This document shows positions 3,152-21,082 of a stretch of 64,000 bases of DNA, in pieces; position 1 is the stretch's first letter; every line of letters begins with the position of its first letter. The notes beneath the pieces were generated by a model. It was not told the origin of the DNA and made no database searches. It was given only the letters and a program-made list of their open reading frames with translations. The stretch is from the IMG/VR virus record IMGVR_UViG_3300028888_000001; one strand, given 5' to 3'. The translations under genes were made by a program, and so were the position numbers. Source of the DNA: a virus. Lineage: Duplodnaviria > Caudoviricetes.

Positions 3152-3235
3152 GCCCGATTGACGGAATTGGTATACGTAACGGACTTAAAATCCGTGGTCC
3201 TATATGACATGTGGGTTCGAGTCCCACATCGGGCA
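3152..3235 (+). tRNA. tRNA-Leu(TAA)
   Basis: GCCCGAT/ATCGGGC acceptor stem, ACGGA-CTTAAAA-TCCGT anticodon arm, long variable arm, GTTCGAGTC T-loop. Confidence 0.95.
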
Positions 3236-12258: not shown

Positions 12259-13605
12259 ATGTTAAATATGACTATTTTTGGAGTTGGAGCTGCAGGTAAT
12301 AAAGCAGCTATCAATCTTATCGAAAATGGAATTGTTGCTCCTGAATATATCAAGCTTTTAAATACGTCAAGCAAAGATATTCCAGAGGAGTATAAGAATT
12401 CAGATATATTTGTAGCATTTAGTTCTGGCCTTGGAGGATGTGGTAAAGAATCTTCCAAAGGCAAAGCTGCTATAGTAAATGCTATGCGTAAAGGCACAAT
12501 TGATTTTGGAGATTTATTTAATGAAGATTCACAAGAAGTAGTATTAGTATCTTCCGTTGAAGGTGGAACCGGATCTGGGTCTGTACCTCAGATTGCTAAG
12601 TTCTTTATAGAAAATAATGTACCAACACATGTATTCGCATTGATAGGATTCCAGGATGAAGCTAGAGGTATCAATAACACTCTTAAGTTCTTTAAAGAGC
12701 TTCCAGATGGAGTTATTCTTCATACTATAAATAATGGATTTTTCTTGGATTATACTAAGAATTATTCCAAAGCAGAACAAGCAGCGAATGATGAGTTCGC
12801 TACAGAAATTGAAATTCTTAGGGGATCTAAATTGATCAACTCATCTCAGATTATTGATGATGCAGATTTATTGAAGATCAATACAGCTCAGCCTGGATAT
12901 ATGACTATCAATCATATCAATTTGGCTGGGATTAAAAATGTATCCGGATTCAATCAAGCAATTGTTGAGTCATTTGATAACAGCTGCTATCTTGAATCAT
13001 CTAACACGTGTAAGCTTATAGCTGTAATCGTGAACGGCGGTAGAAGAGTAAAAATGTCTGTTGATAACTCCTATGAAGTGATCAAGAGATACACCGGTAT
13101 GCCGCAAGAGCTGTTTCAGCATATTCAGCCAGATAATGATGAAGAGTATATTAATGACGAGTATATTGATATCATTGTTGCTGGAATGAAATATCCAGAA
13201 GAGTCTATACTGGATATGAGCAATAAGTATAAAAAACTTAAAGAACAGATGTCTGCTAAGAGAAAATCTTTTGATGATATCTTCGCTGACATCGATATTG
13301 ATGAGATGGATGATATTGATGCTAGTACATCTATAAAGTCTAGACTTAAATCATCTAAATTCAATAAAGATATCTTCGCTGATATACCTGAGATGGCAGA
13401 TGAAGATGATGCAGCAGTAGAAGAGAACCCCGCTACAGGGTATAAGAATACTAAGAGAGAAAACGCTGTCTCTAGAGTAAAAGAAAACCCTATGAGTCCT
13501 CCACAGGAGAAGAGCTTCAAACTCAAGAGTGGAGGAAATGCAACAGGCCGACTAATCGGATCATCGTCAACAGATTCAACTTCTGATGATATTAACAATT
13601 TTTAA
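12259..13605 (+). CDS. Tubulin/FtsZ-family GTPase (PhuZ/TubZ-like)
   Basis: GVGAAGNK, GLGGCGK, tubulin signature SVEGGTGSG; long acidic C-terminal tail. Confidence 0.92.
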   Translation: MLNMTIFGVGAAGNKAAINLIENGIVAPEYIKLLNTSSKDIPEEYKNSDIFVAFSSGLGGCGKESSKGKAAIVNAMRKGTIDFGDLFNEDSQEVVLVSSVEGGTGSGSVPQIAKFFIENNVPTHVFALIGFQDEARGINNTLKFFKELPDGVILHTINNGFFLDYTKNYSKAEQAANDEFATEIEILRGSKLINSSQIIDDADLLKINTAQPGYMTINHINLAGIKNVSGFNQAIVESFDNSCYLESSNTCKLIAVIVNGGRRVKMSVDNSYEVIKRYTGMPQELFQHIQPDNDEEYINDEYIDIIVAGMKYPEESILDMSNKYKKLKEQMSAKRKSFDDIFADIDIDEMDDIDASTSIKSRLKSSKFNKDIFADIPEMADEDDAAVEENPATGYKNTKRENAVSRVKENPMSPPQEKSFKLKSGGNATGRLIGSSSTDSTSDDINNF

Positions 13606-14930: not shown

Positions 14931-15084
14931 GAGATATTATAGCTTGATATTCTACAGAGGGTGGAGAAATCCACCCTCTGTATTATTTTTAATATAAAAT
15001 TATCAAAAAATACATTTTTACAAGCCAGATTACATTCTTATAATGAAATATAAAGAGCAAATTATCCTCAAGGAGGTAAAAATA

Positions 15085-16317
15085 ATGTCTATATTAGCAG
15101 CTGCATTTAGGGAAGCTGTAAAGAAAACAAAAGACTATTCTCAGATAAATGAGATGAATTATTCTATAAGCTATCCTACAGGGTTTTTGAACCTTGATTT
15201 TGCAAATGGATATATACAAAATGTAAACGGTAAACTTAGATATGAACTTGGAATCACAGATGGATCTATTAATATGATTATCTCTGATTCCGGTTTAGGA
15301 AAAACCACATTAGCAACTCAGATAGCTTGCAATATCGCTAGACGATTCAAGTCGTCTACCATATTTTATGAGCAAGCTGAGGTTGGCACTAATATACAAA
15401 GAATAAAAAATCTATCTGGTTTCCAGACAGATGAAGAGTTTCGTAATAGATTTGTAATTAGAGACGCAGGTATTACAACAGAATCAATATTTGAGCGTAT
15501 CAAGATGATTCACGATATTAAATTAGAGAACAAAGACGAATACTTATATGACACTGGTCTTATAGATATGGCTAGTAAGCCTATATTTAAATTCGAACCA
15601 ACGATAATGATAGTTGATTCCCTTAAGCTAGTTATGTCAAGAAAGAATACTGAAGCAGATGAGACTAATAATATGACTGGAGCTACCAATGCCAAAGCCA
15701 ATTCAGAGTATTATATTAAGATGGTTCCATTATGCCGTGAAGCTAATATTATTATGCTTATCATAAATCATATTACGGTTGACGTTAATACTGGTTTTCT
15801 TCCAAAGAAATCAGAATTCCCATACTTAAAGCAGGGTGAGCACATTGCCGGTGGTAAAAGTGTGGTATATATTCAAAACAATGTATTCCGTCTTGATATT
15901 AAATCTAAGCTGAAACCAGAAGAGGGCTTTGGGATTACTGGATCTGTAGTAAATGTAGATATAGTAAAATCTAGAAGTAGCAAAACATCAAGAGCTAAAT
16001 GCTGTCTAGTGTTTGACCAGCTTACTGGATTTGATCCTGAGCTAAGTTTATTCTATATGCTCAAAGAAGAGAAACTTATTGAAGGCGCTGGTGTAAGCTT
16101 AAGAATCCCAGGGTGTGATATAAAATTCTCACAGAAGAATTTTAAAGAGAAGCTCTATAATGAACCAGAGTTATACAATGCATTTTCTAGTTTATGTGTA
16201 GAATATTTATCAAATATGCTGCTAGAAGAATATAACCAAGCTAGCAAAGAAGAACACGTAGGTGATTCTAAAAAGTCAGTATATGAAAACATGTTAGACA
16301 GGCTAAACTCCAATTAA
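15085..16317 (+). CDS. RecA/UvsX-like recombinase
   Basis: YPTGF..LD, Walker A DSGLGKTT, Walker B MIVDS, IINH, GGK motifs. Confidence 0.88.
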   Translation: MSILAAAFREAVKKTKDYSQINEMNYSISYPTGFLNLDFANGYIQNVNGKLRYELGITDGSINMIISDSGLGKTTLATQIACNIARRFKSSTIFYEQAEVGTNIQRIKNLSGFQTDEEFRNRFVIRDAGITTESIFERIKMIHDIKLENKDEYLYDTGLIDMASKPIFKFEPTIMIVDSLKLVMSRKNTEADETNNMTGATNAKANSEYYIKMVPLCREANIIMLIINHITVDVNTGFLPKKSEFPYLKQGEHIAGGKSVVYIQNNVFRLDIKSKLKPEEGFGITGSVVNVDIVKSRSSKTSRAKCCLVFDQLTGFDPELSLFYMLKEEKLIEGAGVSLRIPGCDIKFSQKNFKEKLYNEPELYNAFSSLCVEYLSNMLLEEYNQASKEEHVGDSKKSVYENMLDRLNSN

Positions 16318-16345: not shown

Positions 16346-16693
16346 ATGATACAGGATAGGAATATATTCAAAAACGTCAATAGACGTAAAACTCCAGAAG
16401 AGAAGAAAAAAGAATTAAACACACCACCAGCTATCGTTGAAATAGATGGTTTATGTACTATGCTTAACATTGGAAAAAATACGGCATACAATCTGCTTAC
16501 ATCAAATGAGATAGATTCTTTTAAAGTTGGTTCTGTATGGAAGATACCAGTATCTTCAATAAACGAATACGTAGAAAGAAAATGCAAAGAGACCAAACTT
16601 GTGAAGATGTATGACGTAGTATCTAAAAATCGTGATCTTCATTTCGAGAGGTATGGAAGGATACCTATGATGTATCATGATCCTACAGATTAA
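16346..16693 (+). CDS. Excisionase-like helix-turn-helix DNA-binding protein
   Basis: LCTMLNIGKNTAYNLL..EIDSFKVGSVWKIP pattern. Confidence 0.8.
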   Translation: MIQDRNIFKNVNRRKTPEEKKKELNTPPAIVEIDGLCTMLNIGKNTAYNLLTSNEIDSFKVGSVWKIPVSSINEYVERKCKETKLVKMYDVVSKNRDLHFERYGRIPMMYHDPTD

Positions 16694-16924
16694 ATTTTAT
16701 CACGTTAGAAATGCCATTATTAAGAGGGATTTCATTATTCATTCAGCTGCAGTAAGATATTGTTCATGAATACCTCCTTTCTAATATTATTAGTCTCTCA
16801 TTAATAATGGCTTTCTATATATTAAATTTTTTGTCGATTATATATTATAAATTTGAATGTAAAAATAACAAGCATGATATTATAAAATTTTACATTCAAA
16901 TTTATTTATAAGGGAGTGATAAAA

Positions 16925-18020
16925 ATGGCTTTTAATCTAGAGAATCAGATTCAAAATAATATTAAAGATTTACCGGATTACAACTATATGCTAGGTAGAA
17001 CTTTAATGCAGCCTTTTAAGCCTAGTAACTCTGGATCACGAGCATTGATGTCAGCTATACATGTTGAGCATTTAATGGTTCCATCAAAACCGGAAACCCC
17101 ATTAGTTCAAACCGGATATGAAACTGAATTTGGCGAGATGTCTACTAGTTATATCGAAGCTAGTGGTAATTGGGAAGTAATTTATAAAATAAACAAATTT
17201 TCATTTAACAACAATCATTATTATCTCATAGTAAGAAATCTAGAGACTGGTATATATGATGTGATTGAGAGAGTCACGTATAAACATAATACAGAGTCTT
17301 ATGGATATATGTGGGATAACAGTCGTATTGATGCGTTGAATATCGGAGACGTTATTAAAGATAAATCCATCATTAAAACTTCTAAAGGCTTTGACGAATT
17401 TGGAAATAAAATGAATGGAGTTAATCTATTAACGTTATATTTAAGCTGTGGACAGAATATGGAAGACTCGATCATTATATCTGAATCTGCAGCGAAAAAA
17501 CTTGAGACTAATCTGATAGAGAATACGTCGATCACCATAAATGATAATGATATACTATTAAATCTGTATGGTGATTATAATACGTATAAAACATTTCCTG
17601 ACATTGGGCAGAAAATAAACAACGGCATATTCTGTGCAATAAGAAGATTAGAGAATGAAAACTTATTATTCTCTCTATCTCAGCAGAGATTGAGAGATAT
17701 AATGATTTCAGATAGAAAAATTATAATGGATGGATATGTAGCAGACATCGATGTCTATTGTAACAATGTAGAAGCTCTTGGAGATTCTACTTATAATAAG
17801 CAGCTTTATAAATATTATCAAGAAAGAATTAATTTCTGTAGACAAGTATATGATCTTGTTGGCCCAATAGCATTAAATAACCAGATGACTTATGATCTAC
17901 AAGAGTTATTTGGAATTGCTAGAGATACCATTACAGGAAAGCAGTTTTTTAAAGAACGACAGTTTAACAATGTCATCATGGAAGTTACAGTAATGCATCC
18001 ACTGCCAATAATGGACGGAG
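16925..18020 (+). CDS. Phage (non-virion) RNA polymerase beta-like subunit, exon 1
   Basis: NSGSRALM, GQNMEDSIIISES RpoB motifs; ends ATG GAC GGA G just before the conserved GDK motif. Confidence 0.88.
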
Positions 18021-18466
18021 AAACTATATAGTTATCTCAGCGCATTTAGTAATAAGTGCGTTCCTACGGGGTTAATTGCAGGTAATTGGTAAAGCCTCGC
18101 ACCAAAGCGGAATCTGAAAAGATAGACGTAAAGGGACGAAAGTAGAAAAAACGCGAGGATGGTATATGGTTAAATGAAAAGTAAAGTGTATAGTCGGTAA
18201 TATACTTTACCCCTAAGTACTATTTAAAAATCCATGTTCTTGCAGCGAAACACCTAAAAGATTTTATCTCATGGTGGACGTTCAACGACTATCCGATGGC
18301 ATCGGAGTAAAGCCGCAAGCTAAAGGCGGAAGAAAAATCCCGGCCCTATTCTTATAGGGATGATAAATAGTCTATGCACGTTTCGAAAGAAAGTGACTTG
18401 GAATTGACCAAGCAATATATGTTGCGAATATATTGAAATCTGGCTCCCGTTTTAAATAAATACAAT

Positions 18467-18512
18467 TTTCTCAACACCTCGGTAAATCTTAACTCGGAAA
18501 GGTGGTGAGAAA
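18467..18512 (+). promoter_or_regulatory. RBS-sequestering hairpin with embedded late promoter upstream of tnpB
   Basis: TTTCTCA-A-CACCT pairs with AGGTG-G-TGAGAAA; AACA-CCTCGG-TAAA at 18473-18486. Confidence 0.7.
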
Positions 18513-18516
18513 TATC

Positions 18517-19722
18517 ATGAGTAATTCTACTTATATAAAAGGGTTTAAATATCGAATTTATCCAAATGATTGTCAAAAAGAAATTATAAATAAATTTGTG
18601 GATATGTATAGATTTGTTTATAATTGGGGTCTAGCTCTTGAAGAAGAGACATATCAAAAGTTCTTAAATGGAGAATCGGAGAAACGATTTTTATATTTCT
18701 TTGATCTATGCGCCGAATTTAAAAAGTTCAAATCTATAGAAGAAAATTCTTGGGTTTGTGAGCTTCCAAATACAACTGCGCGTTTAGCATTAAGAGATGT
18801 AATATATTCATTTCAAAAATTCTTTAAAAAGATAAATAGGTACCCAAAATTTAAATCTAAAAAGCGAAGTGTAAAAACTTTTAAAACTAGATCGGATAGA
18901 TTTTCATTTAATGATGATGGGAAGCTAAGATTTGAAGGCCTTCCTAAAGCATTTGTTGATGCTGCTTCCGATAGAGTTGATTTGCACTTCGATTGTGGAT
19001 TTAGAGATGAAAAATTTATACAGCCTTCTATTTCTATTGATAATCTTGGACGATATTGGGTTTCATTTTCTGTGGAAACTGAATGTGAAGTTCTTGACAC
19101 TCCAAAAACAGAACCAATAGGTATCGACTTAGGAGTTAAGACTACAATAACACTTTCTATAGGAGAGAAATTTAATAAACCCAAAGAAAAGTTAGAAAAA
19201 ATACAGCGTCAAATTAAGAAAGCCAATAGACGCGTTTCTCGTGATATTAATCGAAGATTTGCCGAATCAAGACGTACGAAAACCAAGTACGAAGATATAC
19301 CCAAAAGTAACCGCGCTATTAAGCGACAAGAAAAACTTTCTAAGTTATGTAAAAGACGGTATAATATCAAACGCAATTTCTATCATGAAACTGCTAAAAA
19401 GATAGTATTAAGGAATCCTGAAGGCATTGTGATGGAGACTATTCCAGTTCTTGAAACTATGAGAAAATATAAGAAAACAGCGAAATTTTTAGCTGACGCT
19501 GATTTCTATTTAATTACTCAAATTTTCAAAGAAAAATGCACGAAGTATTCTGTTCCGTTTATGCAAGCTGATAGATCATTTCCTTCATCGCAAATTTGTT
19601 CTAATTGCGGGTCAACTAGAAAAATTGGCGGTTATCATACTTATATTTGTCATAAATGTGGTATGAGAATGGATAGAGATATCAATGCTGCTATAAATCT
19701 TAGAAATCTATTCTTCGCTTAA
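18517..19722 (+). CDS. tnpB: TnpB RNA-guided endonuclease
   Basis: N-terminal KYRIYP HTH, RuvC GIDLG / VMET / DRDINAAINL, zinc finger CSNCG..CHKCG; catalytic D-E-D present. Confidence 0.93.
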   Translation: MSNSTYIKGFKYRIYPNDCQKEIINKFVDMYRFVYNWGLALEEETYQKFLNGESEKRFLYFFDLCAEFKKFKSIEENSWVCELPNTTARLALRDVIYSFQKFFKKINRYPKFKSKKRSVKTFKTRSDRFSFNDDGKLRFEGLPKAFVDAASDRVDLHFDCGFRDEKFIQPSISIDNLGRYWVSFSVETECEVLDTPKTEPIGIDLGVKTTITLSIGEKFNKPKEKLEKIQRQIKKANRRVSRDINRRFAESRRTKTKYEDIPKSNRAIKRQEKLSKLCKRRYNIKRNFYHETAKKIVLRNPEGIVMETIPVLETMRKYKKTAKFLADADFYLITQIFKEKCTKYSVPFMQADRSFPSSQICSNCGSTRKIGGYHTYICHKCGMRMDRDINAAINLRNLFFA

Positions 19723-19729
19723 AGCTTTA

Positions 19730-19955
19730 ACGGTTTATACAAATAGCTGGGTAGGTGTTGTATGAACTTTTGTACCGGGCACTGCTCTCGGGAATTTAAG
19801 TTCGTGGAGAATTGTATTTTATATTATAGTATTTACTCGGTATTTCGGAGCCGAGACTCTATTCTCCTTATTGGGAGGATAGGGGTTGCTATAGTATAAA
19901 TTAGTTTGACGAAGCGAAAAGGCGGGAGCCAAAGCAGATAAACTTTCCGATCGGT
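19730..19955 (+). ncRNA. Predicted TnpB omega-RNA scaffold with guide from exon 2
   Basis: Hairpin-rich 3' region with TACCG..CGGGAATTTAAGTTCGTGGAG and GAAGCGAA (TTCG/CGAA pairing) like TnpB-element right ends; boundaries approximate. Confidence 0.6.
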
Positions 19956-21082
19956 ATGGCGGTAAAGGTGTAGTTTCAAAAATACTTCCAGATAACAAAA
20001 TGCCAATACTTGAAAATGGTGAAGTTGTAGACATTATTAAGAACCAGAGTACGTGTATTAATCGTGAGAATATTGGTCAGCTGCATGAGCAGTCATTGAA
20101 TTTCATTGGTATGAGAATTCTTGACTTCTTTAAAACAAATGTGCTGACATACTCTGAGATGGTTCAGATGTGGTATAAATTCGTTTCTATGGTTGATCAA
20201 CCTCAAGCACAGATGGGCGCTGGGATGATTGACTTCTATGACGAAGAACAATGCAGATTGTTTATAGAGTCTATCTATGACGATGGTGGTATTATATTAT
20301 CATCTCAGCCGTTTACGACTCCTATAAATCTAGATACTATAGCAGAAATCTATAAAGAATTTCCATTCATTAAACCCTATAAGGTAGCTATGCCTATAGA
20401 AGACAGTAATGGTAATATAAGATTTGTAAAGTCCAAAAGAGACTTAGTTGTTGGAAAAATTTATAATTATAGACTCAAACAATATGCAGAGGAGAAATTC
20501 TCTGTAACGTCTTTATCGGCTACCAATCTTAAGAACTTAAATACTCGTTCTAAAGCTAATAAAGCGTATGAAACTAAGTATGCTAAGACACCGATCATGT
20601 TCGGTACCATGGAATCTGGTAACCTGTCTCATCTAGGCATGCAATATGTGGTAATGAATCTCATGCTATATAGTAGTAGCCCTAGAGCTAGAAGACTGTT
20701 TGAAGAGCTATTAATTGGAAATCCATATGATATCAATATAGTATTGGACAAAGACAGCAAAAATAGAAACGCTGAAATCATCAATGCTTTATTGAAAACT
20801 ATGGGTTTGAAATTAGTATTTTCAAAAGAACCAAAAGAAAAGAAAACCATGATGAATAATATTATGTATGAGCTTGTAAGTGCTAAAGACTTTAAACCTA
20901 AAACTAATATTAGACAGATCATGGACTTTTATGATGATGAAATAGAGCTTAAATATGCTGGAGCTCTTCATCATAAAAATAATAAACCAATGTATAATCT
21001 TATAATGATGGAGGATGTCAACAATGACGAACCTCAAACAAATATTAGAGCAATCATTGAAGAATCTGACGGAGAAGAATGA
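19938..21082 (+). CDS. Phage (non-virion) RNA polymerase beta-like subunit, exon 2
   Basis: (D)KLSDRYGGKGVV, MPILENG..DII.N..INRENIGQ, YNYRLKQ, FGTME motifs. Confidence 0.9.

Follow-up and report, generated by a model that had tools for sequence, protein, structure and literature searches.

The DNA analysed in this study, hereafter called the window (64,000 nucleotides), is a part of the complete 313-kb genome of a phage with 32.5% GC. The locus described below lies in a gene orthologous to AR9 g089, which codes for the C-terminal beta subunit of non-virion RNA polymerase; the gene order matches that of AR9, and the gene is split by a group I intron carrying tnpB. The features identified are as follows.

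16838-16855, plus strand: early-type (virion RNA polymerase) promoter of the host gene, with the predicted start at G16855
16925-18020, plus strand: exon 1 of the AR9 g089-like gene, ending with GGAG (predicted TAM), whose last G is an unusual base for a 5′ splice site
18021-19937, plus strand: group I intron of 1,917 nt without transposase, apparently derived from an IStron; its removal restores the reading frame
18032-18038, plus strand: internal guide sequence, able to pair with the junction of the joined exons and differing together with the exon in homologs
18441-18453, plus strand: 5′ strand of a long-range 13-bp helix, pairing with 19919-19931 and looping out tnpB
18467-18512, plus strand: hairpin hiding the ribosome-binding site (RBS), with the arms 18467-18479 and 18500-18512
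18473-18485, plus strand: core of a late-type promoter, AACA-N6-TAA by the AR9 rule, with the predicted start at A18484
18500-18508, plus strand: tnpB Shine-Dalgarno sequence, 8 nt before the ATG at 18517 and conserved in homologs
18517-19722, plus strand: tnpB, 401 amino acids (Pfam PF12323, PF01385, PF07282)
19771-19937, plus strand: omega-RNA-like scaffold, with boundaries inferred from the block conserved in homologs and its fold, ending at the 3′ splice site (CAG)
19938-21082, plus strand: exon 2, of which the first 20 nt or so would serve TnpB as the guide (17 of 20 positions matched in the empty alleles of L011 and L015, behind GGAG)

Removal of the intron restores the protein sequence MDG-DKLSDRYGGKG within an open frame of about 746 amino acids, and the same site is empty in related phages, in which the alleles read GDK. 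The group I core was detected with the Rfam model RF00028 at 18036-18395 (E 1.3e-4, under the gathering score). The 5′ splice site (window 18017-18038) follows a G in a G-C pair and not the usual U.G pair, and the 5′ exon ends with GGNG, mostly a glycine codon plus G, in all 11 elements with a visible junction; for the element in this phage, the target ends with AG and the intron with CAG. The long-range helix (-23.7 kcal/mol) was equalled in none of 500 shuffles, and homologs form corresponding helices of other sequence, with strong support in two (L023 and L233) and moderate support in four; the 5′ strand is located upstream of the late start in every homolog tested. [quoted passage not shown] Neither serine nor Y1 transposase was found in the element or in the complete genome, and an ORF with a helix-turn-helix at 16346 was rejected as a transposase part, as it also adjoins an uninterrupted allele.

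Group I core motifs were observed at 10 or more sites of this genome (gyrB, terminase, RNA polymerase beta′ and others), including 54801 and 55704 on the minus strand of the window, a stretch that precedes the window by about 1.8-4.7 kb, and 89412, -47586 and -133706 in window numbering. In two relatives with the empty GDK site, the same polymerase gene carries an interruption of 300-350 nt near codon 42 (L011:5001-5424 and L015:5123-5472), possibly another intron. Elsewhere in the window, a gene of the tubulin/FtsZ family (12259-13605; weak Pfam match) adjoins a recombinase-like gene (15043-16317), and two tRNA genes (2374-2445 and 3152-3235) border an ORF-free stretch of about 700 nt.

The earlier note on this DNA had described a 12-bp stem covering the tnpB RBS, and this stem was found as described, with a single A.G mismatch at A18474. 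The hairpin has a minimum free energy of -15 kcal/mol (z -3.58), equalled in none of 200 shuffles. For the read-through leader, opening of the RBS was calculated to cost 12.6 kcal/mol, which ranks second highest of 192 genes in this genome, whose median is 3.7, and for the RNA starting at the predicted position 18484 the cost is 3.2 kcal/mol. The sole mismatch of the stem, 18474, coincides with promoter position -10. As to other roles of this segment, an intrinsic terminator was rejected, the hairpin being unlisted as such on both strands, and GTG at 18502 was rejected as the tnpB start since it lies inside the Shine-Dalgarno sequence and homologs align from ATG 18517. The search for a host sigma-70 promoter for tnpB gave nothing above background.

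The promoter motifs were learned from 187 intergenic regions of the genome, excluding that of tnpB, and the names early and late were assigned after the AR9 consensus sequences and the genes that carry each motif. The early promoter previously proposed for the host gene was confirmed: 16838-16855 is the top site of the genome-learned motif (20.5 bits) and fits the AR9 early consensus. The site inside the hairpin had been called a perfect copy of the phage late motif, and this holds for the AR9-type core AACA-N6-TA (18473-18484), but not for the matrix of the phage itself, ACA(T/A)(T/A)-N4-TAA with an AT-rich spacer. Against this matrix the site in the intron reaches 4.7 bits, less than any of the 101 trained native sites (6.3-14.7), and 1,145 positions in the genome score the same or higher. 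It carries CC where native sites prefer TT, and has four G/C in the spacer, as does no native late site. Within the window, the bare late pattern shows no enrichment, with 17 occurrences against 22 expected. With this weak score and no enrichment, the genome alone cannot establish a late promoter, and the significance of the intron site comes from its position and its conservation in homologs. It lies 43 nt before the ATG, and the median for native sites is 46 nt.

The phage encodes thymidylate synthase (ThyA) and dUTPase (L240 and L241; G000:C1:259311-262296), and its DNA therefore probably holds thymine and not uracil. The AR9-like late promoter seems to be read here on thymine DNA; because of this probable thymine DNA, the phage polymerase may read more than the AR9 core, and the longer T-rich late consensus may replace the uracil requirement of AR9.

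We consider it about 75% probable that this 53-nt stretch is a two-state expression gate of a mobile group I intron carrying tnpB. The long pre-mRNA from the early promoter would fold the hairpin and keep ribosomes off tnpB, and the untranslated intron would be spliced to give the subunit of non-virion RNA polymerase. This polymerase would then start transcription at about 18484, and the short RNA, without the ribozyme core, the 5′ arm of the hairpin and the 5′ strand of the long-range helix, would be unspliceable; it would expose the RBS, and its 3′ part could adopt the omega-RNA fold, for which exon 2 would be the guide. TnpB would cut intron-less alleles (GGNG plus exon-2 sequence) of co-infecting phages, leading to homing. 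With such a gate, one transcript would serve splicing and another the production of nuclease and guide, and TnpB would in addition be delayed where the host gene is early, as it is here. Because splicing at this locus yields a part of the very polymerase expected at the internal promoter, TnpB would follow splicing. The same gate was found in introns of late-type host genes (virion RNA polymerase subunits and terminase), where delay alone would gain nothing; more than a mere delay of TnpB, the gate thus probably yields a distinct tnpB/guide transcript that cannot be spliced.

The RuvC residues D204, E307 and D388 and the zinc finger of TnpB are intact, and they are invariant in 40 homologs. 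The guide of this intron matches empty alleles at up to 17 of 20 positions behind GGAG, the best of them being mismatched at guide position 6, and no such target exists in its own genome. Several homologs, in turn, have predicted guides that agree with the empty orthologous site in the present genome at 13-18 of 20 positions, behind GGNG, the mismatches falling largely in a third-codon pattern. Nine or more sites, distributed over seven genes (both types of RNA polymerase, helicase, terminase and others), carry elements of this kind, intron-less alleles exist in at least 12 related phages, and the TnpB tree does not track the host gene. As judged from these predictions, the profile is that of a homing element, phage-adapted and mobile, and the element is a selfish one tuned to the phage transcription programme.

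The same RNA polymerase beta gene carries further insertions in other phages. In a 270-kb phage (L238:1-5739) it contains two TnpB introns, of which the first lies at the same site as here, between GD and KL, and encodes a TnpB from a different sub-branch, suggesting an independent insertion at a hot spot. In L232:117-1600, a core-clade TnpB intron is located about eight codons downstream of the site in our phage, and its guide matches exon 2 of our gene at 19962 (14/20 behind GGCG).

It had been proposed that TnpB was domesticated by the phage and was not a recent passenger. Domestication was not borne out: fixed position, vertical inheritance and lost mobility, by which it would be marked, were not found, and the multiple sites, the empty alleles, the preserved catalytic residues and a guide directed to the intron-less allele speak against it. 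The latter half of the proposal stands in part, in that the TnpB lineage is long resident in this phage group (a branch of 16 TnpBs), but the element itself is patchy and mobile. True domestication, by which late TnpB would be a weapon of the phage against the RNA polymerase gene of competitors, is compatible with the gate and differs from homing in the beneficiary. PhiPA3 gp210 acts in this way on PhiKZ (PMC11620839), the gene targeted here is essential, and the well-matched empty alleles with a TAM belong to distant phages. Patchy occupancy, the number of sites and genes, and discordance between the tree and the host gene are, however, marks of a mobile element, and we regard domestication as rather unlikely.

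The proposed gate was then compared among related introns. A protein search gave about 85 TnpBs of 41-61% identity, and 15 related loci with DNA were compared; in every case a phage gene is interrupted, and a group I core precedes tnpB wherever the contig extends far enough. In IMG/VR, neither this TnpB alone nor two DNA patterns of the intron retrieved any close family members. In the tree (IQ-TREE, quick version; outgroup mostly of distant TnpBs from a metagenome scan), 16 TnpBs formed one branch (support 100; 35-61% identical to this TnpB where measured), including a core clade of 11 to which this TnpB belongs. The promoter core AACA-N6-TA is kept in register in 9 of the 11 core-clade introns, with spacer and loop varying in sequence and length, though these members are related and do not represent eleven independent trials; the remaining two carry AACA-N7-TAA (L023) and TACA-N6-TG (L025). 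The motif is absent from all 38 outgroup tnpB leaders. In the homolog phages, the genes around the introns have late and early motifs like those of the present phage.

The hairpin is stronger than in shuffled leaders in 9 of 11 core-clade members (z 1.7-4.6), being weak in L023 (z 0.7) and in L229, which is cut by the contig end, and in all members the RNA from the predicted start has a lower cost of RBS opening. Promoter positions -11/-10, at which the AR9 polymerase needs two As, are mostly unpaired inside the stem in the core clade. Closed leaders as such are not special to this clade, for 15 of the 38 outgroup leaders likewise have an opening cost of at least 7 kcal/mol. Of the five deeper members of the branch, only L111 and L238b (AACC) are gate-like, and L238a, L239 and L030 are not. 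RNAalifold on a MAFFT alignment gave no consensus structure, and pair covariation was not above that of shuffles; the registers shift between members. Conservation and covariation in related introns had been named as a check on the gate, and of these the conservation of both promoter core and hairpin was found, but covariation in this alignment was not.

One different account accepts the hairpin as a real translational damper guarding splicing, but takes the promoter in this copy as decayed or very weak, TnpB being made by leaky translation of the precursor or of the excised intron. The low score, the CC in place of TT and the GC-rich spacer agree with such decay, as does the absence or alteration of the motif in some family members. 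Against it, L027 has the identical core and spacer with a TnpB only 59% identical, the AA is retained as a flaw of the stem, and AR9 tolerates changes at non-conserved positions, which are less important in vitro; altogether, decay is improbable in our view.

It is still far less probable that the promoter match is a chance by-product of a pyrimidine-rich arm complementary to the Shine-Dalgarno sequence: the bare motif is common and the arm must resemble the complement of GGTGG, but when the leader was mutated in simulation under selection only for the hairpin, the late motif was present 0.6-2.7% of the time, against 9 of 11 in nature, and TA holds its distance from AACA, whether paired or not. 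An equally remote idea is that the inverted repeat acts on DNA by exposing the template strand for AR9-type polymerases, which would suit the reading of single-stranded template by the AR9 non-virion polymerase and the equally good folding of the opposite strand in this copy, but the inner stem pairs vary in homologs via G.U wobbles, as expected of RNA on the coding strand; the opposite strand would have A.C mismatches at those pairs, and the stem is centred on the RBS, with most native late promoters lacking such a repeat.

The two-state gate thus stays as the preferred reading, and the wiring proposed at the outset by likeness to T4 I-TevI, a late promoter in the 5′ arm of an RBS hairpin, is supported by conservation in related introns beyond the structure-only expectation. 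For T4 I-TevI, I-TevII, I-TevIII, segB and Aeh1 mobE (PMC2988022), likewise, the nuclease gene resides within an early gene, in its group I intron. In these T4-type gates, as predicted here, the RBS is hidden on the read-through RNA and the late promoter is so placed that the late RNA loses the 5′ arm (PMC2988022), and the gate of I-TevI type protects splicing (PMC2988022). The system in this phage differs in that it employs an RNA-guided TnpB instead of a GIY-YIG or HNH nuclease, with no sequence homology claimed, and a predicted promoter of a phage-encoded multisubunit polymerase, and in that the late RNA would also supply the guide. The host gene is early, as for the T4 gates, but several homologs lie instead in late-type genes.

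Nearer precedents come from jumbo phages. AR9, a related jumbo phage, has intron-internal AACA-N6-TA late promoters for g146 and g147 in an RNA polymerase subunit gene (PMC5312081, supplement), with late starts mapped by dRNA-seq at 24-25 nt before the nuclease gene (PMC5312081). The mapped starts fall on the exact bases predicted by the late-promoter rule, and both promoters overlap predicted hairpins near the nuclease RBSs (L243:6699-9443), which by computation do not amount to a clear gate. In AR9, however, the nucleases are protein-guided and the DNA contains uracil, whereas here the nuclease is RNA-guided and the DNA probably contains thymine. No late promoter was seen in the leader of AR9 g271, or in those of two gyrB intron ORFs of the present phage. 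PhiPA3 gp210 (PMC11620839) is a jumbo-phage intron nuclease aimed at the gene of a co-infecting phage, as proposed here, but it is an HNH nickase with a shown fitness benefit, whereas the present one is RNA-guided with a predicted target.

By its predicted parts, the element is a group I intron that lacks a transposase and is akin to group B IStrons. The sequence traits general to IStrons are present: a group I core, frame-restoring splice sites, tnpB with intact RuvC and a predicted 3′ omega-RNA. From group B it shares the 5′ exon ending with G and the G-rich target, and lacks the GG-ending target, the CGG 3′ end and the serine-recombinase tnpA, which is often lost; the traits of group A (IS605), namely a TTGAT-like site, U at the 5′ splice site and Y1 tnpA, are absent. 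The group B IStrons BcISt1, CboIStron, CbISt3/4 of phage c-st and CsISt1 (PMC4227781; 10.1101/2023.11.20.567912) are alike in combining a group I intron, tnpB and a 3′ omega-RNA, and also in the G at the 5′ splice site, the G-rich target and a helix enclosing the ORF. CsISt1, an atypical member, has AG/...CAG ends and ORF B only, as does the present element. IStrons are known in clostridial phages too. Unlike group B IStrons, the element has no tnpA, carries GGNG/...CAG ends in place of GG/...CGG, and resides in conserved motifs of phage core genes with an internal guide adapted to the site. Described IStrons have tnpA and tnpB under a single promoter (10.64898/2026.03.11.711047), whereas a gated phage promoter of its own is predicted for tnpB here.

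The sister branch (L036 and L032-L034) is group B IStron-like, with CGG ends, AT-rich end repeats and a tnpB RBS that is open, and L036 and L032 show the GG target and a similar intron core (L036, 69% over 363 nt). The nearest outgroup, L036:2300-4330 and L032, consists of TnpB-only group B IStron-like elements on apparent phage or prophage contigs from environmental samples. In L036, tnpB has an open RBS (2.6 kcal/mol) and is preceded by a TTGACA-17-TATAAT promoter (host sigmaA). The phage branch has GGNG/...CAG ends, with CAG in the core clade. The simplest reading, from a small outgroup sample, is that the host promoter was swapped for a phage promoter.

The locus joins two known kinds of element, and each ingredient has a precedent; the combination of a gated internal phage promoter with tnpB was not described in the literature searched. 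For CboIStron a conflict is known, in that one RNA must both splice and guide TnpB, and binding of TnpB blocks splicing. Tentatively, and at somewhat less than even odds, we propose that this lineage dropped the transposase and took a hairpin-gated phage late promoter, that the two transcripts would thereby resolve the conflict between splicing and guide supply with the nuclease licensed after splicing, and that TnpB would serve as a self-reprogramming homing nuclease or weapon. The family may thus represent a natural solution to the IStron conflict. In it, an RNA-guided nuclease, from a TnpB branch whose TAM is predicted to be G-rich and degenerate (GGNG), would function and be regulated like a classical phage homing endonuclease, a likeness to T4 that apparently arose by convergence.
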